A DNA stretch of 64,000 nt from Vagococcus sp. (GTDB lineage Bacteria > Bacillota > Bacilli > Lactobacillales > Vagococcaceae), in NCBI GenBank assembly GCA_052104115.1, contig JBQELZ010000007.1:28012-92011 (forward strand). The letters run 5' to 3'. Below the pieces are notes generated by a model, which ran no database searches, had not been told where the DNA came from, and was given only the letters and a program-made list of their open reading frames with translations. A program made the position numbers and the translations under genes. Shown in pieces: positions 22,611 to 42,549 of the stretch; position 1 is the stretch's first letter; each line of letters starts with the position of its first letter.

Positions 22611-23603
22611 TTAATTCCAAGCATAAGCATTCGTTTCAGATGCTAAATAGTCTAGCCATTTTGAATCTCTAATCTCTAGAAATGTTAAGGAAATCCCTGC
22701 CATATTAGTGGATGTCATATAATTCCCTGCTTTTTGAAAGGCTACATCAATGCCTTCAAGTAACAACAATCGTTGAATATCATTCGCAAAAATATAGTGT
22801 TCCATGACTGTCGTTGTCCCCAACCCATTAATTAACACTGCAAATGGATACTTTTCTGGAGTATCGTATTGAGACAATAACTTATTTACTAATTCATTAG
22901 CCAAATATTCAGACGAGAAAAATGGCTCTTTTCTATAACCAGCTTCTCCGTGAATCCCAATGCCATAAGATATCTCACCTGGCTTCAAATCAAATGCGGG
23001 AGAATCTTTCCCTAAGGCACGTCCACTAGAAAGGGCAACTCCTAATGTGTTAGTCGCATAAATAACACGCTCTCCTAATTCCTTCAATGCCATCAATGAC
23101 AGCCCATCTCTTGCAGCTGCCCCTAGTATTTTATGCACTAAAACAGTCCCCGCTACACCTCGACGTCTCTTTTGATAACTTCCTTCTTCTATAGAGCAGT
23201 CATCATTAACAATCACGTGTTCCACGTTTAATCCTTCTTTTCTTGCTAACTGTTCCGCTTCTAAAAAATGTGCCACATCTGCTTCAAAATTTTTTATAAT
23301 CAGTAATACACCATGTTGTGTATGAACTTCCCTAATTGCTGTTAATATATCCGCTGCTTTAGGTGGCACAAATATAGGACCACTGACGCTAGCACTAAGC
23401 ATTCCATCTCCCACATAACCAAAATGAGCTGGTTCGTGTCCACTTCCCCCACCACTTATTAGGGCAACTTGGTCTGGATTTGATGAAAGTTGTTTGATTA
23501 TACCTGTATGCTTTACTCTCTCTAATTTATCCTTATGAATAAAAGCTACACCATTTAACACTTGAGATACTGTATCTTTTGGTTTATTAATAATTTGAGT
23601 CAT
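22611..23603 (-). CDS. dhaQ: DhaK paralogue, DhaKLM operon coactivator
   Basis: SGGGSGHEPAHFGYVG, GIHGEAG and KNFEAD (vs KNYSGD in DhaK); second DhaK-like gene of a DhaS-regulated cluster. Confidence 0.8.
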   Translation of the reverse strand: MTQIINKPKDTVSQVLNGVAFIHKDKLERVKHTGIIKQLSSNPDQVALISGGGSGHEPAHFGYVGDGMLSASVSGPIFVPPKAADILTAIREVHTQHGVLLIIKNFEADVAHFLEAEQLARKEGLNVEHVIVNDDCSIEEGSYQKRRRGVAGTVLVHKILGAAARDGLSLMALKELGERVIYATNTLGVALSSGRALGKDSPAFDLKPGEISYGIGIHGEAGYRKEPFFSSEYLANELVNKLLSQYDTPEKYPFAVLINGLGTTTVMEHYIFANDIQRLLLLEGIDVAFQKAGNYMTSTNMAGISLTFLEIRDSKWLDYLASETNAYAWN

Positions 23604-23716
23604 TCTTGTCTTCCTCCACGTTTAACTCATTTTAGTGTAACATAAACCCATTCTTTTCTACACCTATTTAAAAAGCTAGAACCTTATTGGCTCTAGCTTC
23701 ATTTAACTTTTTAATT

Positions 23717-24853
23717 CTAACGACTATATATCATTTTGTAATCGCGACCAATCTTATCTGCTGCGATAATCGCTTGTGCCACTTCATGCTCATCAATCGG
23801 GAATGGCATTGAATGAATTGATTCTTCTGGTATACATGCTTTTTTAGCCACTTCCATAGCTTCTTCTAACGTAATCGACTCTACACCAATATCAGCTAGA
23901 CAAACAGGTAATCCAATAGATAAACTAAAATCCAATACTTCGTGTAGTTCTTCTACTGTTGCATTTTCTAATACTAATTGACAAATGACACTAAATGCCA
24001 CCTTTTCACCATGGAAATAATGATGTGTCCCTTCTAAAGCAGTCAATCCATCATGAATGGCATGAACAGCAGCTAACCCACTGCTTTCAAATCCAATACC
24101 TGATAATAAAATATTAGTTTCCACAATATTCTCAAGTGCTGGGGTAACAATGTTATTGTCACACGCAATTTTAGCATTATAGCCATCTTCTAATAATGTT
24201 TCATAACATACTTTAGCTAAAGTATATGCAGCAATTGTATGCTTCGCTGGTGCGGTTTCTTTCGTCAAATATCCATTTGGCAATCCTGCGTTAACATTTG
24301 AATAAGAACGAGATGTTGCACGTGCTTCAAACATAGTTGATAAAGCATCACCCATGCCTGCCACTAAAAATCGAGTCGGAGCATTGGCAATAATTTTTGT
24401 ATCCACCAAGACTACGCTTGGACTTTGTTTAAAGTAGGCATAATCATCAAACTCACCATCTTCTGTATAAAGAACAGCAGAATGACTTGTAGGTGCATCC
24501 GTTGCAGCAATCGTCGGCACTATAATTAATGCCTCCCCTTCAGCCACACATTTGGATGTATCTATTGCTTTACCACCCCCCAGTCCTATCACACAGTCTG
24601 TCTGTTTTACTTTTGCCACTTCTTGTAAACGTGTCACTTCTTGGCGTGAACATTCGCCATTAAAATGACTTGTCACGATGTCTATGCCAAATTGTTTTGC
24701 CGTTCTATCCAACTGTTCCTGTACACGGTCAATATCATCCTGATGAGCAATCAATAATGCTGACTTCCCAAACGTTTTTACATAATAACCTAAATTGACT
24801 ATCTCATCTTCACCTTGTACATATTTTGTTGGGCATATAAATGCTTTTCTCAT
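23717..24853 (-). CDS. gldA: Glycerol dehydrogenase
   Basis: PTKYVQG, GLGGGKAIDTSK, PTIAATDAPTS, AGMGDALST, HAIHDGLT...HGEKVAF. Confidence 0.92.
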   Translation of the reverse strand: MRKAFICPTKYVQGEDEIVNLGYYVKTFGKSALLIAHQDDIDRVQEQLDRTAKQFGIDIVTSHFNGECSRQEVTRLQEVAKVKQTDCVIGLGGGKAIDTSKCVAEGEALIIVPTIAATDAPTSHSAVLYTEDGEFDDYAYFKQSPSVVLVDTKIIANAPTRFLVAGMGDALSTMFEARATSRSYSNVNAGLPNGYLTKETAPAKHTIAAYTLAKVCYETLLEDGYNAKIACDNNIVTPALENIVETNILLSGIGFESSGLAAVHAIHDGLTALEGTHHYFHGEKVAFSVICQLVLENATVEELHEVLDFSLSIGLPVCLADIGVESITLEEAMEVAKKACIPEESIHSMPFPIDEHEVAQAIIAADKIGRDYKMIYSR

Positions 24854-24872
24854 ACTTAATTCCCCCGATTTT

Positions 24873-25241
24873 TTATTTCACTGTTAATGGTTGTAACTGT
24901 TCATCAATTGCGTCAAAATCTGCTCCTGCTTGTATTAACGCTGCAGCTGTATAGCTACTTTCAATTAAAGCTGTATCGTACAATACAACGTCCTTGTCTG
25001 ACATATCAATTGCCATTTCTAAATTCATTTTGGCACTTCCTAAATCATAAAAAGCTAAAATTCTATCCGCTTCATTTGCTTCAAATGCTGCTGATATTTT
25101 GTCAAAACTTGTTCCAACTCCACCATCGTCTAATCCACCTGCTGTGGTAATCGAAACATCTTTTGCCACTTCTCTAATTAAAATCTCAATCCCCTGTACC
25201 ACGTCTGATACATGAGACACCATAACAATACCTAAACTCAT
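24873..25241 (-). CDS. dhaM: PTS-dependent dihydroxyacetone kinase phosphotransferase subunit
   Basis: GIVMVSH, AGGLDDGGVGTS, DLGSAKMN. Confidence 0.93.
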   Translation of the reverse strand: MSLGIVMVSHVSDVVQGIEILIREVAKDVSITTAGGLDDGGVGTSFDKISAAFEANEADRILAFYDLGSAKMNLEMAIDMSDKDVVLYDTALIESSYTAAALIQAGADFDAIDEQLQPLTVK

Positions 25242-25242
25242 C

Positions 25243-25821
25243 TTATTTCACCTCTGCTTCTAACATTGCTTCAAATAGATAGGCACTAGAAACAGAGCCT
25301 GGGTCAACATGTCCTAATGAACGATCACCTAAATATGACGCTCTGCCTTTTGTTGCCTTGATATCTTTCGTTGCTTCTGCAAATCCGTTAACTTTTTCAA
25401 TCGTTAATTCATCTTGTTTCAATGCAGCAATTGTCGGTGCCCAAGTATCTATCATCGTTTTTTCACCAACGGTTCCTTTACCACGTTTTTCAATTTCAGC
25501 TAATCCAGCCTCTAACACTGTCACTAAATCATCTGATGCCATTGATGCTTTTGTCATCCCCATAAAAGCAGATCCATACAACGGGCCTGATGCCCCACCA
25601 ACTTTACTGATTAAGGTCATTGCAGACACTTTGAAGATATCAGTCACTGTTTCTGGTTGTTTTTCTTGAAGAGCTTTCATCATCTCTGTCGTACCACGTG
25701 CCATGTTTGCACCGTGGTCTCCATCACCAATAGCACTATCTAAATCACTTAAATGCTGTTTGTTTTCAACTACTTTATCTGTAAATAACTGCAACCATTT
25801 TAATACGTTCTCTTTATTCAT
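25243..25821 (-). CDS. dhaL: Dihydroxyacetone kinase ADP-binding subunit
   Basis: LDSAIGDGDHG, VGGASGPLYG, GEKTMID, KGRASYLG. Confidence 0.95.
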   Translation of the reverse strand: MNKENVLKWLQLFTDKVVENKQHLSDLDSAIGDGDHGANMARGTTEMMKALQEKQPETVTDIFKVSAMTLISKVGGASGPLYGSAFMGMTKASMASDDLVTVLEAGLAEIEKRGKGTVGEKTMIDTWAPTIAALKQDELTIEKVNGFAEATKDIKATKGRASYLGDRSLGHVDPGSVSSAYLFEAMLEAEVK

Positions 25822-25832
25822 TTATTGTCTCC

Positions 25833-26819
25833 TTACCAAGCTATTGTGTTTACGCTATAGTTTAATTGTTCTGTCCAGTTGTCTTCTAATTTAATCATGG
25901 TTAATGATAATCCAACCATGTCAATAGAGGTCATCACGTCACCAACTTTTTTATACTTCACATCAATACCATCTTCAGCAAGTAACGCTTTCACATCATT
26001 GATAAAAACAAATTGTTCCATTAATGGTGTACTTCCAAGGCCATTAATCAGCACACCATACTGGTCTCCCTTACTCCAATTAAATTCTTGTTTCAGTTTT
26101 CCTACCATTTCTTTTGCTAACTCTTTAGAAGGTCTTAACGATTCTTTACGATAACCTGGTTCACCATGGATACCTACACCAAATTCAATTTCATTTTCTT
26201 CTAACTCAAAACCAGGTCGGCCTACAGCTGGAACTGTCGCTCCTGCTAACGCAACGCCAACTGTTTTGATATTTGTAACTAACTTGTCTGCCAACTCTTT
26301 AATATCTGATAAACTTTTACCTTGATCTGCAGCCGCTCCCAATATTTTATGAACCAAGATAGTCCCTGCAACACCACGCCTACCAGCAGTGAACGTACTG
26401 TCTTCAACAGCTACATCATCATCAACAATAACTGTTTCCACAGCGATTCCTTCCATTTCTGCCATATCTTTTGCCATTTCAAAGTTCATCACATCACCAG
26501 AGTAATTTTTAATGACTAAAAATACCCCCGCCCCTTGATCAGCTGCCTTAATGCCTTCTAATACTTGATCTGGTGTAGGAGACGTAAAAATTTCTCCACA
26601 AACAGCTGCTGTTAACATACCTTTTCCAACAAAACCAGCATGTGCAGGCTCATGACCACTTCCCCCACCACTCACTAATCCTACTTTTCCTGATTCTTTT
26701 TGTTTTTTGACAATGACATCGGTTTCAGAAACACGTTCAATTAAATCACCGTAAGCAAATGTCATTCCTTCTAGCATTTCGTTTAAAATGTCCTCTGGCT
26801 GATTAATTATTTTCTTCAT
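25833..26819 (-). CDS. dhaK: Dihydroxyacetone kinase DHA-binding subunit
   Basis: SGGGSGHEPAHAGFVG, FTSPTPDQ, KNYSGDVMNF, GIHGEPG. Confidence 0.95.
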   Translation of the reverse strand: MKKIINQPEDILNEMLEGMTFAYGDLIERVSETDVIVKKQKESGKVGLVSGGGSGHEPAHAGFVGKGMLTAAVCGEIFTSPTPDQVLEGIKAADQGAGVFLVIKNYSGDVMNFEMAKDMAEMEGIAVETVIVDDDVAVEDSTFTAGRRGVAGTILVHKILGAAADQGKSLSDIKELADKLVTNIKTVGVALAGATVPAVGRPGFELEENEIEFGVGIHGEPGYRKESLRPSKELAKEMVGKLKQEFNWSKGDQYGVLINGLGSTPLMEQFVFINDVKALLAEDGIDVKYKKVGDVMTSIDMVGLSLTMIKLEDNWTEQLNYSVNTIAW

Positions 26820-26871
26820 GTCTAATATCCCCTCTCATGTTTGTTCTATTTTCGACATCTTCATTATAAAA

Positions 26872-26885
26872 TGAAAAGGGTTTCT
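26872..26885. promoter_or_regulatory. cre-like (CcpA) site
   Basis: TGAAAAGGGTTTCT vs TGWAANCGNTNWCA (2 mismatches), upstream of dhaK. Confidence 0.45.
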
Positions 26886-26892
26886 TTGTAAC

Positions 26893-26914
26893 GGACAAAT
26901 ACAAGTATGTGTCC
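26893..26914 (-). promoter_or_regulatory. DhaS operator
   Basis: Minus strand GGACACAT-ACTTGT-ATTTGTCC matches the GGACACAT-N6-ATTTGTCC site I recall for Lactococcus lactis DhaS. Confidence 0.8.
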
Positions 26915-26986
26915 GCTTACTTTTTTTGTTTGTCATTTAAAGTGTTACTTGTTACTCTAGAGTAGACAGTACGAAGGGGTGAACAC

Positions 26987-27556
26987 ATGGTATCCAATGG
27001 GTCATTAATTACAAAAAAAGTCATTGCCTATTCATTTAAAGACTTAATGAAAACAAAAGACTTTCAAAAAATATCAATCAAAGATATTATGAGTCATGCT
27101 GATTATCGCAGACAAACATTTTACGATCACTTTAGTGACAAATATGACCTTCTTTCTTGGATTTATAACCAAGAAATTACGGAAAATATCGAGCACTTCA
27201 TTAACTATGAACACTGGACAAACATTATCCCCCGAATTTTAACCTATTTTCAAAAAAACAAAGATTTTTATCAACAAACATTAAGACTCACTGAGCAACA
27301 GTCATTTGACCAATATTTTGTTCGTCATACACAACATTTTATTATCACTATTTTGGAGTCTGAGCAATCCTGTTTACCTAAAACAAACAATCATCAAACT
27401 ATTGAAGATATCGCTAAATTCTATGCCTTTGGTCTATCTGGTCTTGTGACAGAATGGGTGTTTAATGACTGCGACACACCTATAGATGAATTAGAATTGT
27501 TTTTAGTCACAGTCATCGAATCTTCTATACTAAAAGACTATAAAAAAATCCATTAG
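26987..27556 (+). CDS. dhaS: TetR-family activator of the dha operon
   Basis: SLITKKVIAYSFK.LM...FQKISIKDIM...RRQTFYDHF.DKYDLL; divergent from dhaK. Confidence 0.9.
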   Translation: MVSNGSLITKKVIAYSFKDLMKTKDFQKISIKDIMSHADYRRQTFYDHFSDKYDLLSWIYNQEITENIEHFINYEHWTNIIPRILTYFQKNKDFYQQTLRLTEQQSFDQYFVRHTQHFIITILESEQSCLPKTNNHQTIEDIAKFYAFGLSGLVTEWVFNDCDTPIDELELFLVTVIESSILKDYKKIH

Positions 27557-35621: not shown

Positions 35622-36416
35622 CTAATCAAGATACTCCAATGACTCATCATTATTCAACCAAGCATACGTTAATCCGATAACTAAACCACCACCGACAAAA
35701 TTACCAATAAATGTCAAAATAATATTATGTAGCAATGTACTAAGTGTCAAGCCCGCGATAATACCACCAGAAGAAAAATAAGCTAATGGAAAATAAATAA
35801 AATTAGCAATCACATGTTCAAACCCTAAAAATGTAAAAATGAAAATCACAAATAAAATTGATACAAACCGTCCGATATCATCTTTTACCTTCATAGACAT
35901 CAATACAGCTAAATTAACAATAATATTAGCAAACATTGCTTCTACTAATGTTTGTACCGTCCCTTTTTGTAATTTACCTTCGACAATATGGAGTAAAAAA
36001 TTGTCCCCAGGTAGGTCATTAAATGCACCTGTTAAAGAGAGTAAAAAAGCTACTAACAATGCCCCTAATAAATTAAATAGTACACAAACTAACAATATTT
36101 TCAGTGATTTAGACGCTGACAATTTCTTTCTAAATGTCGCAACTGTCATGTACATCATATTAGATGTGCCTAGTTCAGCATTTAAAAAAATAATCAATGC
36201 CAACCCAATTCCAAACATAAACGCATACAATATTTTCCCAACACCACCATCAAATTTGAGACCTAAGCCTAATGCTATAGCTGAACCTAAGCTCAAATAT
36301 AATGTAGCTAAAACAGATCGTCCTGCATATCTTGAGAAACTTTTATCTATTAAGTCATTCTTTTTTCTAATCGAACCGTCAATCTTAGTCATTAACTCCG
36401 AATTGCTACTTGTCAT
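35622..36416 (-). CDS. Formate/nitrite transporter family channel
   Basis: AELGTSNMMY, LVEAMFANIIVNLA, GFEHVIAN, GNFVGGG. Confidence 0.9.
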   Translation of the reverse strand: MTSSNSELMTKIDGSIRKKNDLIDKSFSRYAGRSVLATLYLSLGSAIALGLGLKFDGGVGKILYAFMFGIGLALIIFLNAELGTSNMMYMTVATFRKKLSASKSLKILLVCVLFNLLGALLVAFLLSLTGAFNDLPGDNFLLHIVEGKLQKGTVQTLVEAMFANIIVNLAVLMSMKVKDDIGRFVSILFVIFIFTFLGFEHVIANFIYFPLAYFSSGGIIAGLTLSTLLHNIILTFIGNFVGGGLVIGLTYAWLNNDESLEYLD

Positions 36417-36594
36417 ACCACTTACTCCTCTTCATTTCATTTGTTTGATTTATCACATAATTCTACGATAACTTCTTAAACTATTCTACCTTTTAACGAA
36501 AAAAAATACGTCAAAAAGACAATATTCAATGTTTTAGAAACAAGTTAACTATTTTTATTGACTTGGCCTACAATTCCGTTGTATAATATAATTT

Positions 36595-36760
36595 GTGTAA
36601 AATAATGCAGCTAGAAAGTAAGCAGCTCGTCATTAGTTTATTTGCCTTAATTGGGTTCAATTGTGTAACCACGGCTGCAAAGGTGAAGATTGAAGAATGA
36701 ACTAACCGATTGTTAATATTTTCAAGGAATTATTTTACTCCAAATAAAAAACATATTGGA
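36595..36760 (+). ncRNA. S4 leader (rpsD 5' UTR)
   Basis: Long UTR after a TTGACT/TATAAT promoter with GCAGC...GCTGC pairing upstream of rpsD. S4 autoregulatory leaders are known in Firmicutes. Confidence 0.6.
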
Positions 36761-36771
36761 GGAATTACCAC

Positions 36772-37383
36772 ATGTCACGTTATACTGGACCAAGTTGGAA
36801 AATTTCAAGACGCTTAGGTATTTCATTATCAGGAACTGGTAAAGAATTAGCTCGCCGTCCTTACGCACCAGGTCAACACGGACCTAACCAAAGAAGAAAC
36901 AAATCTGAATACGGAATGCAATTAACTGAAAAACAAAAATTGCGTCATATGTACGGTTTAAACGAACGTCAATTCCGTAACTTATTCTTTAGAGCTGGAC
37001 AAATCAAAGAAGGAAAACACGGTGTTAACTTTATGGTGTTATTAGAACGTCGTTTAGATAACGTTGTTTACCGCCTTGGTTTAGCTACAACTCGTCGTCA
37101 AGCACGTCAATTTGTTAACCACGGTCATATCTTGGTTGATGGAAAACGCGTTGACATCCCTTCTTACGAAGTGGAAGTAGGACAAGTTATTTCTGTTCGT
37201 GAAAAATCTAAAGATTTAGCTTTCATTAAAGAAGCTGCTGAATCAACTATGGGTCGCCCAGCTTTCGTTAGCTTCGACGCTGAAAAACTTGAAGGTAGCT
37301 TAACTCGTTTACCTGAACGTGAAGAATTACCACAAGATATCGACGAATCATTCGTTGTTGAATTCTACAACAAATTACTATAA
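36772..37383 (+). CDS. rpsD: 30S ribosomal protein S4
   Basis: [16 protein letters not shown]...[13 protein letters not shown]...[10 protein letters not shown]. Confidence 0.99.
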
Positions 37384-37434
37384 GATTCTCTTATGGTTAC
37401 AAAAAAACACTTTCCTTTATTGGAAAGTGTTTTT

Positions 37435-38187
37435 TTAATAAATAATTTTAGTTTTCCCTAAATAATCTGTTTCTATATCTGAATTCAATTTTTTTTCAGT
37501 GATAATCCCAGTGACACCTTCGATTTCTGAAACTTTAATCAACCCAATTTTTTCAAATTTTTCTGTTTGGGCAACAATATATTTTTCTATTGAATTATTT
37601 AGTATTGTTTTTTTCGCTTCCGACTCTAAAAATGTTTTTGTCGAAATTCCATGATCACTATGTATGCCATTAGCACCAATAAACGAAACATGATATGAAA
37701 ATTGGGAAAAAGATTTTACTGCTACTGGCCCTTCAAAAGATCTATGTTTGTGAATGTAGTTTCCACCTGTGCAAATCAAATTGATTTGATTTTTATGAGC
37801 TATTATTTCACAAACATCCAAAGAGTTTGTCACTAGCGTCATAGGTTGATTTGGTAGTTCCTGTGCAATTAAAGTTGTTATAGTACTTGTATTTAGAGCC
37901 ACAAACATATTAGGTTGTACAAATTCTATCGCTTTTTTGGCAATATCCAATTTTATATCCAAATCTTCTATACTCTTTTTGGAGTAATCTGTCTGCTTTG
38001 TATAATCTTCATTGAGAATTGCACCTCCATGAATTCGAGTTAAAACGCCACCTTTTTCTAACTCAGATAAATCTTTCCTAACAGTTGTTTTAGCAACCCC
38101 TAAACTATCAGATAATTCATTTACAGTGACTGTTTTATTGCAGTTTAGTTGATTTACTATAGCTATTCGTCGTTCTATTTCTAGCAT
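37435..38187 (-). CDS. DeoR/GlpR-family sugar-responsive regulator
   Basis: HTH LGVAKTTVRKDL..LE..G.LTRIHGGA plus a DeoR sensor domain. Start at MLEIERR behind GGAGG. Confidence 0.92.
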   Translation of the reverse strand: MLEIERRIAIVNQLNCNKTVTVNELSDSLGVAKTTVRKDLSELEKGGVLTRIHGGAILNEDYTKQTDYSKKSIEDLDIKLDIAKKAIEFVQPNMFVALNTSTITTLIAQELPNQPMTLVTNSLDVCEIIAHKNQINLICTGGNYIHKHRSFEGPVAVKSFSQFSYHVSFIGANGIHSDHGISTKTFLESEAKKTILNNSIEKYIVAQTEKFEKIGLIKVSEIEGVTGIITEKKLNSDIETDYLGKTKIIY

Positions 38188-38256
38188 GTTCACCCTCCTT
38201 TCCACAAAACTTCCAACATATTATAACATGACTTCTTATAAAAATATAATATTCCA

Positions 38257-38307
38257 AAAAATCGTTTTCACTCGTTTGTTGACTTTTAAACTCGTTATTG
38301 CTATAGT
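38257..38307 (+). promoter_or_regulatory. Aldolase-PTS promoter with a cre-like site and direct repeats
   Basis: TTGACT-N17-TATAGT (38279-38307); cre-like TGAAAACGATTTTT on the minus strand (38257-38270); ACTCGTT repeated 20 bp apart (38270, 38290). Confidence 0.65.
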
Positions 38308-38332
38308 TTAGTTATCAAAAGGAGGAATCATC

Positions 38333-39160
38333 ATGTTAGTATCAAGTAAAGAATTATTTCAACACGCACAAAAAGGAAATTTTGCTATTCCCGCACCGAA
38401 TTTTTTCAATGAACTCTCTTTAAAATCTTATATAAAGTGTGCAGAAGATAGAAATTTACCTCTATTAGTATGTTTCGCTGAAGTACATGAAGAATTTTTA
38501 GATATAGAAGAAGCTGCTGAATTAGGTAAATTCTACGCAAAAAGAGCAAATGTTCCAGTTGTTTTACATCTAGACCACGGTATGACTTATTCAACAATAA
38601 TGAAAGCGATTAAATACGGGTTTACCTCAGTTATGATTGATGCATCAAGTGACCCATTTGAAGAAAATATTCGAAAAACACAAGAAATTGTTAAAGCTGC
38701 TCATGCGGTTGATGTCGTAGTAGAAGCAGAAATTGGGCATGTAGGCGCTGGTGTAAATTATGAAAATCACGAACAAACAGATTCGATTTATACGGATGTA
38801 AATGAAGCAAAAAAATTCGTGCAATTAACAGATGTTGATTCACTAGCTATTTCAATTGGTACTGCACATGGTTCTTATAAAGGAACTCCCGTTTTAAGTT
38901 TTGATACGTTACAAGACATACGACAATCTATTGACACACCTCTTGTTCTTCATGGTGGTTCTTCTAGTGGTGATGACAACCTACATAAATGTGCAACAAG
39001 TGGTATTTCTAAAATCAATATCTTTACAGATATGATTACGAATGGCATGAAAGAAGTAAACGATAATAGCTACAATGACATTTTCGAATTGAATGACTTA
39101 TTTTCTAAAGGTTTATACAATTGTCTAGATCACTATTATGATGTTTTCAACACCAAATAA
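38333..39160 (+). CDS. Class II ketose-phosphate aldolase (FBP/TBP aldolase family)
   Basis: HLDHG, VMIDAS, EAEIGHV, AISIGTAHG, LVLHGGSS, KINIFTD. Confidence 0.88.
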   Translation: MLVSSKELFQHAQKGNFAIPAPNFFNELSLKSYIKCAEDRNLPLLVCFAEVHEEFLDIEEAAELGKFYAKRANVPVVLHLDHGMTYSTIMKAIKYGFTSVMIDASSDPFEENIRKTQEIVKAAHAVDVVVEAEIGHVGAGVNYENHEQTDSIYTDVNEAKKFVQLTDVDSLAISIGTAHGSYKGTPVLSFDTLQDIRQSIDTPLVLHGGSSSGDDNLHKCATSGISKINIFTDMITNGMKEVNDNSYNDIFELNDLFSKGLYNCLDHYYDVFNTK

Positions 39161-39177
39161 AAAGGGGGAAATAGTCA

Positions 39178-41070
39178 ATGCAATTATTTACCGTATTAAA
39201 AAAAGATTGTTTATTTTTAGATAAACAAGTGAATGATAAACTAGATCTTTATACACAAATGGCTACTATTTTAAAAGAAAAAGGAGCCATCGCTAATACT
39301 GATTTGTTTTTAAAAGCATTAGAAGATCGTGACAATCAATCACCTACAGCTATTGGGGAAGGTGTAGCTATTCCACACGGTATTTCTGACACAGTAATCA
39401 AGCCTACAGTTGTCTATTTTAGATTAAAAAATCCAATATCATACGATAGCTTAGATGGGCAACCAATTAAGCACATTTTTATGATAGCGATTCCAAACGA
39501 ATTGAGATCAAATCAAGTTAAAATACTAAGTGATATTTCTGTGCTTCTACTAGACGATTCGTTTAAACATATATTAGACCATACAAACAGTACTACGGAT
39601 ATCATTGAGTATATGGAAAAAACAATTTGTTCTGATGACAAACAACACACTCATACTTCTACCGATGTTAATAGTAAAAAGATTGTTGCTATCACATCTT
39701 GTACAACTGGTATCGCTCATACTTTTATGGCAGAAAAAGCATTGTATAACGCTGCAGAGAAACTACACATCACAATGAATGTGGAAACACAAGGTGCTGG
39801 TGGTGTTGAAAACAAACTCACTGATGAACAAATAAAACAAGCAGATGTTGTCATTTTAGCTATAGAAAAGGGAATCGATGAATCTCGATTTGCTGGCAAA
39901 GACATCTTGAAAGTTTCTCCAGGAAAAGCAATCAAAGATGGAGCGTCCGTGATAACTGATGCATTAGACAAAAAAGGGACTTATCAGATTGATGAAAAAG
40001 ATGTCAATCACTCCACCTCTATTGATAATTCTCAAGGAAATAAAACCAAATCATTCTATCAACATATGTTAAGTGGTGTCTCTTACATGATTCCTATTGT
40101 TGTTGCTGGTGGTATTTTAATAGCTCTATCATTTTCTTTTGGTATCACTGCATTTGAGAATGAAGGGTCACTACCATGGGCACTATTCCAAATTGGTAGT
40201 GTATCAGCATTTTCATTGATGTTCCCAGTCTTAGCCGGATTTATCGCTTATGATATCGCTGATAAACCAGGTTTTGCACCAGGTATTATCGCTGGTTTCG
40301 TAGCCAGTAATACAGGTTCTGGATTTTTTGGTGCATTAGTTGCTGGTTATTTAGCTGGTTATCTAGCCTTGCTTATTAACAAAAAAATGCCTTTTCCAAA
40401 AAGTATACAAGGTTTAAAGACAATTGTATTTATTCCCGTTGTTACAACTCTTCTTGTTGGGCTATTTACTATATTTGTTGTTGGAAAACCAATAGCTGCT
40501 CTACAAGATGTTATCATGAATTTCTTATCCACCCTATCATCAAATAATGCTGGAATCGTTATTCTATCATTAGTTTTCAGCTTACTTTACTTTGATTTAG
40601 GTGGACCTATTTCAAAAATGGTCTATTCATTTGGACTTGCTGCTCTAGCAGAAAATATTTATGGCCCAATGGGAGCTATTATGGTCATCGGTATGGTCCC
40701 TCCAATCGGCATGGCTATTGCAACAATGCTACGACCTAACTTATTTGACTTAGAAGAAAGAGAAGCTGGTAAAACTGCTCTTGTTTTAGGTATGAGCTTC
40801 ATTACAGAAGGTGCTATCCCATTCTTAATAGCAAAACCTAAAAGCTCTATTCCTTCATTTATGATAGGTGGTTTTGTAGGATCATTAACAGCCTTTACAC
40901 TAGGTTTAGAAATTACTGCGCCGCATGGTGGTCTATTCTTAGCATTAATACCAAATGCAGTCAATAATGTATTTTATTTCTTAATTTCTCTATTAGCTGG
41001 TGGATTTGCCTGTGCTCTATCAATGATTATATTAACTACAAAATTCAATAAAACCTCTAAATTAAAATAG
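39178..41070 (+). CDS. Fructose/mannitol-family PTS EIIABC
   Basis: IIA GVAIPHG, IIB CTTGIAHTFMAE...ETQG, IIC GVSYMIP...DLGGP..K...EGAIPF. Confidence 0.93.
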   Translation: MQLFTVLKKDCLFLDKQVNDKLDLYTQMATILKEKGAIANTDLFLKALEDRDNQSPTAIGEGVAIPHGISDTVIKPTVVYFRLKNPISYDSLDGQPIKHIFMIAIPNELRSNQVKILSDISVLLLDDSFKHILDHTNSTTDIIEYMEKTICSDDKQHTHTSTDVNSKKIVAITSCTTGIAHTFMAEKALYNAAEKLHITMNVETQGAGGVENKLTDEQIKQADVVILAIEKGIDESRFAGKDILKVSPGKAIKDGASVITDALDKKGTYQIDEKDVNHSTSIDNSQGNKTKSFYQHMLSGVSYMIPIVVAGGILIALSFSFGITAFENEGSLPWALFQIGSVSAFSLMFPVLAGFIAYDIADKPGFAPGIIAGFVASNTGSGFFGALVAGYLAGYLALLINKKMPFPKSIQGLKTIVFIPVVTTLLVGLFTIFVVGKPIAALQDVIMNFLSTLSSNNAGIVILSLVFSLLYFDLGGPISKMVYSFGLAALAENIYGPMGAIMVIGMVPPIGMAIATMLRPNLFDLEEREAGKTALVLGMSFITEGAIPFLIAKPKSSIPSFMIGGFVGSLTAFTLGLEITAPHGGLFLALIPNAVNNVFYFLISLLAGGFACALSMIILTTKFNKTSKLK

Positions 41071-41083
41071 TCCACATTTTCAA

Positions 41084-41120
41084 GAGTATTCATTGTTAAA
41101 CTGTGAATACTCTTTTTTAG
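41084..41120 (+). terminator. Intrinsic terminator after the PTS gene
   Basis: AAGAGTATTCA-TTGTTAAACTG-TGAATACTCTT followed by T residues. Confidence 0.8.
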
Positions 41121-41184
41121 TCTAGATTTTTCCATTCTTTCTTTACCTTTTCTTAAGTTTCACAGTGTATACTTAAAGTAATCA

Positions 41185-41267
41185 GTGGATGAACATGGTT
41201 TTATGACTTATATAAGATGTGACAGTTTATCCTATATCAGGTGTAGGTTCGAATCCTACCTTCCACG
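41185..41267 (+). ncRNA. tRNA-like RNA / pseudo-tRNA
   Basis: Acceptor GTGGATG/CTTCCAC (6 of 7 pairs), discriminator G, perfect T-arm GTAGG-TTCGAAT-CCTAC, miniature D-arm CAT-GGTTTT-ATG, about 12-bp central stem in place of the 5-bp anticodon stem. Confidence 0.7.
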
Positions 41268-41269
41268 TA

Positions 41270-41308
41270 AAAAAACGCCCCTTCCTTTTAGGAAGAGGCA
41301 TTTTTTAT
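41270..41308. terminator. Bidirectional terminator after the tRNA-like RNA
   Basis: AAAAAAC-GCCCCTTCCT-TTT-AGGAAGAGGC-ATTTTTT. Confidence 0.8.
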
Positions 41309-42549
41309 TTAGAAAATCTAAGCGCATCTTTAAAGACTTGCATCATACTCTTATCACTATAAATAAGGACTGTTGATTTGTAAACTTTTGCAGATAATTT
41401 CAAAAGTAATACAATACTAATCACAAGAACCCCTAATGATAATAATACTTCCATACTGGTCGCTTCACTATTCGCAATTCTCATTGGCATAGAAAAAGAT
41501 GAAAAGAATGGTACAAACGAAAAGACCTTAATCAATATGCTTTGCGGATTAGATAATCCAATCATCATGCTTGGCAGAGAGGCTAGTACAATTAAATAAG
41601 TGACTGGTGCAACAGCTTTTGGCGCATCCTCTGCCTTACTCACAAGAGAGCCCATAAATGCAGATAAAATAGTATAAATCAAGACGCCAAATAATAAAAA
41701 TAATAAATTGTATCCAAGTAATCCATTCAGCAATTCCTTCAAGGAGACTTCTTGTAGAAACGATTGAACCATGTCCATATCTTTTGCAAAGGCATATCCA
41801 ACAATTCCAGATACCAGATAAATACTTACCTGCGTCAGAATCACTAAGAAAATCCCCATTATTTTACCATAAAAATGTTTGGCTGCTGTTGTACTAGATA
41901 ATATCACTTCCATAATACGCGGTCCTTTTTCTGATGCCACTTCTTGCGCTGTAATGGAGGAATACAGCATCACGATCATGTACATGGCTAAAACAATAAA
42001 GAAACCTACCATTGTTAGTGCCGCGCGATTGCTTTTATTATCAACCATATGTCCTTTATCAAACTCAACTTGTCTTTCTTTCAACGTTGCTGTCGCAAAT
42101 AGCGTGTTCATTTCTTCTTGACTTAAATCCATCGTCTGACTATTTAAAGACAATTGAATGCTATTTAAATAGGTCTGAATGGTTTGGTTATCGGTTGTCC
42201 CCAATGTTTTCTCTCCAACATAATTACCAGATAACTCTTTTCCTTCTTGCTTGATAACAAGATAACCATCAATATCTCCCGCTTCTAAAGCAGCAATTGC
42301 CTGTTTTTCAGATGTTATTTTTTTATTAATCTCAAAAGACGATTCTGCTTGTTTTAAGAAATCCGATCGAATAGATGTATTTTCACTAATGACAGAAATT
42401 TCATTTAGACTATCAAATTTACTACCAAAATAAACGCCACCTAACGATAAGCCAATCATTAAAAATGGTGCGAGTACCATCATCACAAAACTGACTGATT
42501 TAACATGTTTTTTATATGTTTCTAACGTGACTACCCAAAATTTATTCAT
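41305..42549 (-). CDS. ABC-2 type exporter permease (NatB/YhaP-like)
   Basis: MNKFWVVTLETYKKHVKS..F, EVASEKG.RIMEVILSS, GK..G, FVPFFSSF.MP.R. Confidence 0.88.
   Translation of the reverse strand: MNKFWVVTLETYKKHVKSVSFVMMVLAPFLMIGLSLGGVYFGSKFDSLNEISVISENTSIRSDFLKQAESSFEINKKITSEKQAIAALEAGDIDGYLVIKQEGKELSGNYVGEKTLGTTDNQTIQTYLNSIQLSLNSQTMDLSQEEMNTLFATATLKERQVEFDKGHMVDNKSNRAALTMVGFFIVLAMYMIVMLYSSITAQEVASEKGPRIMEVILSSTTAAKHFYGKIMGIFLVILTQVSIYLVSGIVGYAFAKDMDMVQSFLQEVSLKELLNGLLGYNLLFLLFGVLIYTILSAFMGSLVSKAEDAPKAVAPVTYLIVLASLPSMMIGLSNPQSILIKVFSFVPFFSSFSMPMRIANSEATSMEVLLSLGVLVISIVLLLKLSAKVYKSTVLIYSDKSMMQVFKDALRFSK

Follow-up and report, generated by a model that had tools for sequence, protein, structure and literature searches.

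A mobile three-gene cassette in Vagococcus: a fructose-family transporter, an aldolase without 6-phosphate ligands and a candidate kinase-free route for ketoses

What becomes of a ketose imported by a fructose-family phosphotransferase system (PTS) when the accompanying genes include an aldolase and no kinase? The question is raised by a unit at nt 37435–41070 of the window, the 64,000-nt stretch of a Vagococcus sp. genome analysed here. By listing of open reading frames (ORFs) and by profile searches, the unit consists of a DeoR-family regulator, a class II aldolase and a fructose-family EIIABC only, and neither method found a PfkB kinase, an isomerase or an epimerase in it or in the 3.77-kb insertion that contains it. 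An earlier note on this DNA had described three genes with terminators at both ends and without 1-phosphofructokinase (1-PFK), isomerase or epimerase; the ORFs, the profile searches and the folded hairpins agree with this description, and the 1-PFK of the genome sits on another contig. The note had also proposed that the imported ketose 1-phosphate is cleaved directly to dihydroxyacetone phosphate (DHAP) and a free aldehyde. From sequence, we give direct cleavage by the cassette aldolase an even chance of being correct. It is favoured because the ligands of a 6-phosphate are lost while the DHAP side is intact, because SqiA and YdjI provide precedents and eight of nine cassettes are kinase-less, and because the three genes were transferred as a block and aldehyde-reducing genes lie beside a plasmid-borne copy.

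In the route envisaged, the DeoR protein would repress the divergent promoter until the sugar phosphate appears. EIIABC would import a fructose-like ketose and phosphorylate it at C1 with phosphate derived from phosphoenolpyruvate (PEP), and the aldolase would split the product into DHAP and an aldehyde that bears no phosphate, in the simplest case glyceraldehyde, leaving the 1-PFK step unneeded. The released aldehyde could be salvaged by DhaKLM/GldA-type enzymes of the host. A complete Lactococcus-type dha locus lies 11–15 kb upstream of the cassette (nt 22611–27556; minus strand: dhaQ, gldA, dhaM, dhaL and dhaK; plus strand: dhaS). With the glycerol dehydrogenase and the PEP-dependent dihydroxyacetone kinase system that this locus encodes, the cell is equipped to reduce free trioses or to phosphorylate them.

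In class II fructose-bisphosphate aldolase (FBA), Ser49 and Arg259 of one chain bind the 6-phosphate together with Arg280 from the partner chain, and Lys184 binds the 1-phosphate; in SqiA, whose substrate is a monophosphate, Arg280 is replaced by Ala (PMC10665668). The arginines to which the earlier note had assigned 6-phosphate binding are thus named in a published structural analysis, together with Ser49. These positions, in the numbering of the Helicobacter pylori enzyme, were mapped onto the cassette aldolase by residue-level and multiple alignments, and all three ligands are replaced: Ser49 by Ala49, Arg259 by Ile235 and Arg280 by Phe251. The zinc, catalytic and 1-phosphate set is intact (His79, Asp81, His82, Glu131, Glu133, His179, Lys183, His207, Ser210, Lys227 and Asn229), with Lys184 kept as Lys183. 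The motifs that had been read from the sequence are confirmed by the alignments, with HLDH, GTAHG, HGGS and KIN present and DPR absent, as is the missing basic residue after KINIFTD, where the residue four after Thr is Ile rather than Arg or Lys. The loss of DPR is real, but it is not peculiar to this aldolase, since the whole clade to which it belongs is without it.

The position equivalent to Arg280 varied with the method: MAFFT gave residue 251, one MAFFT run gave 250, and a weak HMMER segment gave 254. All three are non-basic in the cassette aldolase (254 being Asn), and an AlphaFold2 (AF2) model, which places the Asp N-cap and the helix start at residue 250, supports 251. The loop preceding Phe251 is about 4–12 residues shorter than in GatY, KbaY and the genome's own FBA. 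These three retain Thr or Ser at position 49 and the Arg of DPR; Lys259 is retained in GatY and KbaY only, and the FBA has Gln there. Glu50 was considered as a repeller of the distal phosphate and rejected: the H. pylori FBA also has Glu50, beside Ser49, and 25% of the clade has Gln. As judged from the alignments, the cassette aldolase has lost the known 6-phosphate ligands and its DHAP side is intact.

The aldolase scores far above the gathering cut-off of PF01116 (25.5 bits). Among the NCBIfam models it passes only the broad subfamily model TIGR00167 (ketose-bisphosphate aldolase; 235.6 against 215.6) and falls below the FBA and tagatose-bisphosphate aldolase equivalogs, TIGR01859 (239.6 against 343) and TIGR01858 (210.8 against 443.6), and below all PRK equivalogs. 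Its best solved relatives have near-equal scores (E about 1e-43 to 1e-47) and include SqiA (8Q57/8Q58), AgaY, H. pylori FBA and YdjI. The AF2 model (pLDDT 90.7) is a TIM-barrel with TM-scores of 0.88–0.92 to class IIb structures, the top matches being SqiA, Bacillus anthracis FBA, AgaY and YdjI, and the structure search does not discriminate among SqiA, FBA, AgaY and YdjI.

Relatives of about 278 aa and roughly 60% identity number in the thousands, and most are unnamed or labelled 'class II fructose-bisphosphate aldolase'. In a tally of 183 sequences of this clade, position 49 is Ala and position 235 aliphatic without exception, position 251 is hydrophobic in all but at most one, and position 52 is His in 182. 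The residues His82, His179, His207, Asp81, Glu131/133, Ser210, Lys227 and Asn229 are at least 99% conserved (Lys183 was not tallied). The clade is monophyletic in the tree (support 98/98) and lies apart from GatY/KbaY, FBA and YdjI; within it, the window aldolase groups at 100/100 with those of the two closest cassettes (G022 and L035) and of Enterococcus avium, and the aldolases linked to fructose-family EIIs were not recovered as a single clade. Within the family, 11 of the 35 other genomes encode a clade member; 48 of 401 Lactobacillales species genomes sampled do so at the level of the order, and 5 of 401 in a phylum-wide sample. Many Clostridia have the clade as well. With somewhat less than even chances, its members may be ketose-monophosphate aldolases that take PTS-imported ketoses, or polyols oxidised after import, to trioses without a kinase.

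The neighbourhoods of clade aldolases were read at about 65 loci, 54 of them from species-representative genomes, and about 7–8 kb around the loci was screened by BLAST with nine PfkB proteins of six subtypes. This survey for pfkB, which the earlier note had suggested, found no PfkB gene at any of the 54 species-representative loci, ROK, FGGY and PfkA kinases not being screened in the flanks. PfkB genes were nearby at just two of the roughly 65 loci, and the operons themselves contain no unassigned gene. Nine distinct cassettes have a DeoR gene divergent from an aldolase-EII pair of the fructose family (the window, G022, L035, L050, L053/L054, L051/L052, L123, L124 and the metagenomic contig P0010), and a kinase gene is missing from eight. 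In this arrangement EIIA may be fused or, as in L124, split off, and the L051/L052 copy is plasmid-borne. By far the commonest arrangement is a different one, with a PRD regulator, galactitol/ascorbate-type EIIA, EIIC and EIIB, the aldolase, an archaeal-type paralogue of triose-phosphate isomerase (TIM) and YjbQ. Others combine a PRD regulator and a different fructose-family EIIABC with a following aldolase, or a glucitol-type PTS with a DRL-like oxidoreductase, aldolase, TIM and YjbQ.

At 34 of 37 order-level loci the aldolase forms a trio with the archaeal-type TIM paralogue and YjbQ (UPF0047), accompanied by neither a kinase nor a dehydrogenase (L067–L100, L025–L034, L055–L057 and L040–L045; mostly with the PRD regulator and galactitol/ascorbate-type EIIA/EIIC/EIIB), and a literature search found no paper on it. 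The window cassette is a minimal form by comparison, since the host genome has no YjbQ and only its housekeeping TIM.

In E. avium, the aldolase (66% identical, the closest outgroup) is followed by a glucitol-type PTS and a zinc-dependent alcohol dehydrogenase and stands beside a divergent fruR-fruK pair, in which fruK encodes a 1-PFK scoring above the cut-off and 53% identical to FruK of the host genome. The orthologue of the cassette EII (70%) is 4 kb away, beyond glmS. The whole region (L036:1-12447) reads PRD regulator and fructose-family EIIABC, glmS, divergent fruR-fruK without fruA, and then aldolase, glucitol-type EIIA, the dehydrogenase, GutM and glucitol-type EIIC/EIIBC. Working in the direction opposite to sorbose-1-phosphate reductase, the dehydrogenase could oxidise a hexitol phosphate to a ketose 1-phosphate.

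Comparison with close relatives locates the borders of the insertion. The host genome (2.18 Mb in 49 contigs) was compared with G021, its nearest relative (rpsD 92% identical), and G012. In both, rpsD is separated from the tRNA-like RNA and ABC-2 genes by about 90–120 bp and nt 37395–41162 has no counterpart, so the acquired block consists of precisely the three genes and their terminators. Read from these alignments, the cassette is a self-contained, horizontally acquired three-gene unit that was inserted cleanly. A tRNA-like RNA gene (nt 41161–41308) abuts the right border of the insertion, and its place by rpsD is conserved in the two cassette-free genomes. Elsewhere the cassette occupies unrelated neighbourhoods, including a Rep3/relaxase plasmid, and a search of sequencing runs traced the same DNA stretch to metagenomes of foods and food fermentations sampled in several studies.

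On the plasmid (L051:6208-12311/L052, the same contig as G507:C1), genes for two dehydrogenases lie downstream of the cassette EIIABC: a glycerol dehydrogenase, of which a 105-aa fragment is left, and, about 1.2 kb past EIIABC, an intact iron-dependent alcohol dehydrogenase resembling lactaldehyde reductase. Both belong to families that act on free aldehydes, which suggests that an aldehyde is released. Two copies of the cassette occur on the plasmid contig (36.5 kb), probably an artefact of an assembly that ran beyond the end of a circular plasmid. A mannose/sorbose-type PTS, accompanied by a sigma-54 activator or a SIS protein, immediately precedes the cassette in three hosts that are not otherwise related (L024:2895-6243, L035:2942-6283 and L053:375-2455); the adjacency may be coincidental or reflect a functional link.

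The transporter scores above the cut-offs of TIGR01427 (345.9 against 157.6), TIGR00848 (111.9 against 103.5) and TIGR00829 (100.3 against 76.9), and its phosphorylation sites are intact, with the His of AIPHG at residue 64 and the Cys of CTTGIAHT at residue 175. Its orthologues (55–75% identity) always neighbour the same type of aldolase. By NF007984 it is not a FruA orthologue (473 against a cut-off of 793), so phosphorylation at C1 is predicted from its membership of the fructose family and its pairing with a DHAP aldolase. The premise of the earlier note that fructose-family PTS produce ketose 1-phosphates was too general, as ManP of Bacillus subtilis and MngA of Escherichia coli phosphorylate C6 of mannose residues. 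The genome also carries a canonical fruR-fruK-fruA operon (C3:78415-82048), which shares with the cassette a DeoR-type regulator and a fructose-family EIIABC expected to deliver a ketose 1-phosphate. The cassette has an aldolase instead of 1-PFK, and its regulator gene is transcribed divergently, whereas fruR heads the fructose operon. It is not a duplicate of the fructose operon, since its EII is 35% identical to FruA and its regulator 28% identical to FruR.

Several observations weigh against direct cleavage. A 1-PFK above the TIGR03828 cut-off is encoded elsewhere in all five tested host genomes with a fructose-family EII/aldolase unit, this one included, so a shared kinase is possible, and the host genome has two LacC-type kinases besides. 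The P0010 cassette has a PfkB gene right after EII. In E. avium, the EII orthologue, the fruR-fruK pair and the aldolase all lie within 7 kb, with fruR-fruK in the middle. No cassette gene handles the aldehyde, and loss of the arginines lowers affinity for the bisphosphate but need not abolish its cleavage, as in the R331 mutants of the E. coli enzyme. Position 254 is Lys or Arg in 78% of the clade, where it might replace Arg280, and Asn in the subclade of the window aldolase; the absence of a basic residue was therefore not extended to the clade as a whole. Alternatively, EII could import a fructose-like ketose such as D-tagatose as the 1-phosphate, the second phosphate could come from FruK or a LacC paralogue of the host, and the cassette aldolase could cleave a ketose 1,6-bisphosphate poorly handled by the housekeeping FBA, the cassette being without a kinase because nearly every host already has one. 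The distal 1-PFK and LacC-type kinases, the pfkB gene of P0010, the E. avium layout and the match to TIGR00167 would fit, and in E. coli a tagatose route supplied by the fructose PTS can rely on FruK (PMC10101011). Against such a loan of a kinase, the three ligand positions are now non-polar with no conserved basic substitute in the cassette aldolase, no equivalog cut-off for FBA or tagatose-bisphosphate aldolase is reached, and PfkB is absent from eight cassettes and all species-representative loci; we regard it as rather unlikely. The direct cleavage put forward in the earlier note thus has ligand loss, kinase-less cassettes and a mobile block on its side, and the distal 1-PFK in five of five genomes, the single pfkB cassette and the E. 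avium layout against it. Both the missing kinase and the universal host fruK would be accounted for if the enzyme were mainly a C4 epimerase, carrying out retro-aldol cleavage and re-addition without product release, for example from tagatose 1-phosphate to fructose 1-phosphate for host FruK and FBA. A class II enzyme, FbaA, does catalyse 4-epimerisation of ketose phosphates (PMC5434028), although slowly and as a side activity in that report. The cassette enzyme has the catalytic residues of a normal aldolase, and the aldehyde-reducing genes by the plasmid copy point to a released aldehyde. To our knowledge, no member of PF01116 is a dedicated epimerase, and we consider this explanation very improbable.

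The aldolase may also cleave the monophosphate of a ketose with an anionic or otherwise modified end, such as a keto-uronate or sulfo-ketose imported by the PTS, and release an acid aldehyde. SqiA acts on sulfofructose 1-phosphate, YdjI on octuluronate 1-phosphate and IolJ on a 2-deoxy-5-keto-gluconate phosphate. SqiA (PDB 8Q57-8Q5A; PMC10665668), the best match in sequence and structure, has the PF01116 fold, has likewise lost the partner-chain Arg280, and cleaves a ketose 1-phosphate without a second phosphate. The two proteins are about 31% identical in a structural alignment; SqiA keeps the equivalent of Arg259, is without the 1-phosphate lysine, and functions in a sulfoquinovose cluster, where its partners are an isomerase and a kinase and not a PTS. 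YdjI of E. coli (PDB 6OFU) is the L-glycero-L-galacto-octuluronate-1-phosphate aldolase and so also takes a monophosphate; it shares with the cassette aldolase the PF01116 family, the deletion before the last helix, the absence of DPR and a GHVG...YE loop in the active site. It is 34% identical and forms a separate long branch, its 1-phosphate is made by the PfkB kinase YdjH rather than a PTS, and the cassette has no ydj-like neighbours. YdjI reportedly prefers long sugars with a carboxylate end, as Huddleston et al. are said to have found in 2019. A modified end would also suit His52, which is specific to the clade and lies in the loop that, in SqiA, contacts the sulfonate through its backbone. 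The genome has iolA, iolB, iolC, iolD and iolE, and no dedicated IolJ was found, since just two PF01116 genes are present, those of the cassette aldolase and the housekeeping FBA. The iol cluster is on another contig and has its own regulator, of the DeoR type. It includes iolA, iolB, iolC and iolE, reaches the contig end (L125; C5:111000-122111), and its iolD appears split into ORFs of 474 and 157 aa. The low identity to SqiA and YdjI, the separate clade and the lack of a basic residue at 235, 251 or 254 speak against a modified end, as does the gene content. None of the sulfo-Embden–Meyerhof–Parnas partners (sulfoquinovosidase, sulfoquinovose isomerase, sulfofructose kinase, sulfolactaldehyde reductase or dehydrogenase) occurs in the unit or its flanks, and no exporter or uronate gene accompanies the cassette. 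We hold a substrate of this kind to be improbable.

If cleavage is direct, the likeliest sugars by analogy would be D-tagatose, L-sorbose, a 6-deoxy or C6-modified analogue, or fructose. D-Psicose, one of the candidates named earlier, would be an unlikely substrate because its configuration is (3R,4R) and characterised PF01116 enzymes give 3S products.

The features of the locus are collected in Table 1. The insertion is flanked by rpsD (nt 36772–37383) on one side and by the tRNA-like RNA, followed by the ABC-2 transporter, on the other, and a search of nt 36400–41500 against Rfam found no RNA family. The hairpin shared by rpsD and the DeoR gene folds with -18.5 kcal/mol (z -7.2) on one strand and -18.7 kcal/mol (z -6.9) on the other, and the hairpin and T-run after EIIABC gave -14.2 kcal/mol (z -5.3). 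Both are strong terminators and were missed by a simple consensus scan because their stems are A+T-rich.

Table 1. Coordinates in the window of the insertion, its genes and its control elements
Feature	Position (nt)	Strand	Details
Insertion of 3.77 kb, containing the entire unit	37395–41162		No counterpart in G021 and G012
Bidirectional intrinsic terminator, common to rpsD and the DeoR gene	37401–37436		9-bp core stem ACACTTTCC/GGAAAGTGT, A-run and T-run
DeoR-family regulator	37435–38187	-	250 aa from ATG 38187; GTG 38205 in the ORF list
Promoter and candidate operator repeats	38260–38307	+	TTGACT-17-TATAGT at 38279–38307
Class II DHAP-dependent aldolase, 275 aa	38333–39160	+	PF01116, 273 bits
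Fructose-family PTS EIIABC, 630 aa	39178–41070	+	PF00359, PF02302, PF02378; TIGR01427
Intrinsic terminator of the aldolase-EIIABC operon	41083–41118	+	Hairpin GAGTATTCA/TGAATACTC and T6

The regulator has the HTH_DeoR (PF08220) and DeoRC (PF00455) domains by profile search and reaches no NCBIfam equivalog cut-off. Its likely start is the ATG, which is preceded by AGGAGG, rather than the listed GTG. Its counterparts in the G022 and L035 cassettes share 60–62% identity with it. Three repeats (AATCGTT, ACTCGTT and ACTCGTT at nt 38260, 38270 and 38290) are set in a 10-bp phase around the -35 box and are largely kept in these two cassettes; we infer that they are the operator of the DeoR protein. 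Within the operon, EIIABC starts 17 nt past the aldolase stop and has the ribosome-binding site GGGGG.

Other known systems share parts of this arrangement. The tagatose routes through GatY or KbaY (gat and aga of E. coli, and those of Klebsiella oxytoca and Bacillus licheniformis with a D-tagatose PTS and a tagatose-1-phosphate kinase) likewise combine PTS uptake with a class IIb aldolase paralogue distinct from the glycolytic FBA. These routes phosphorylate twice, their aldolases keep Thr49, Lys259 and the DPR arginine, and, unlike these systems, the cassette has no GatZ/KbaZ partner. The frz operon of extraintestinal pathogenic E. coli, reportedly the subject of work by Rouquet et al. in 2009, is, by description, also a fructose-like PTS encoded with class II ketose aldolases, and it differs in having a sugar kinase, a cupin and split EII components. 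The proposed chemistry, from a ketose 1-phosphate to DHAP and a free aldehyde that is then reduced or phosphorylated, is that of FucA/RhaD (PF00596) and of vertebrate aldolase B. These are of unrelated folds or classes and receive their 1-phosphates from ATP-dependent kinases rather than a PTS, and FucA/RhaD give 3R products.

The literature search turned up no description in bacteria of a kinase-less unit of PTS and class II aldolase, nor of the aldolase clade. The component parts are of known kinds, and the wiring and the specificity of the clade would be new. If direct cleavage is correct, the scheme for fructose-family PTS (1-phosphate, kinase, bisphosphate aldolase) would gain a kinase-free alternative, one widespread among lactic acid bacteria and gut Clostridia that is at present hidden under the annotation of class II fructose-bisphosphate aldolase. 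A large orphan clade would acquire a function and would point to new substrates, perhaps ketoses of foods and the gut that are rare or modified, and biocatalysis would gain a zinc aldolase tuned to unphosphorylated aldehyde acceptors. The clade would then be a bacterial counterpart of hepatic fructolysis, with the three-gene cassette as its minimal mobile form and the aldolase-TIM-YjbQ trio as a second form of the kinase-free route.

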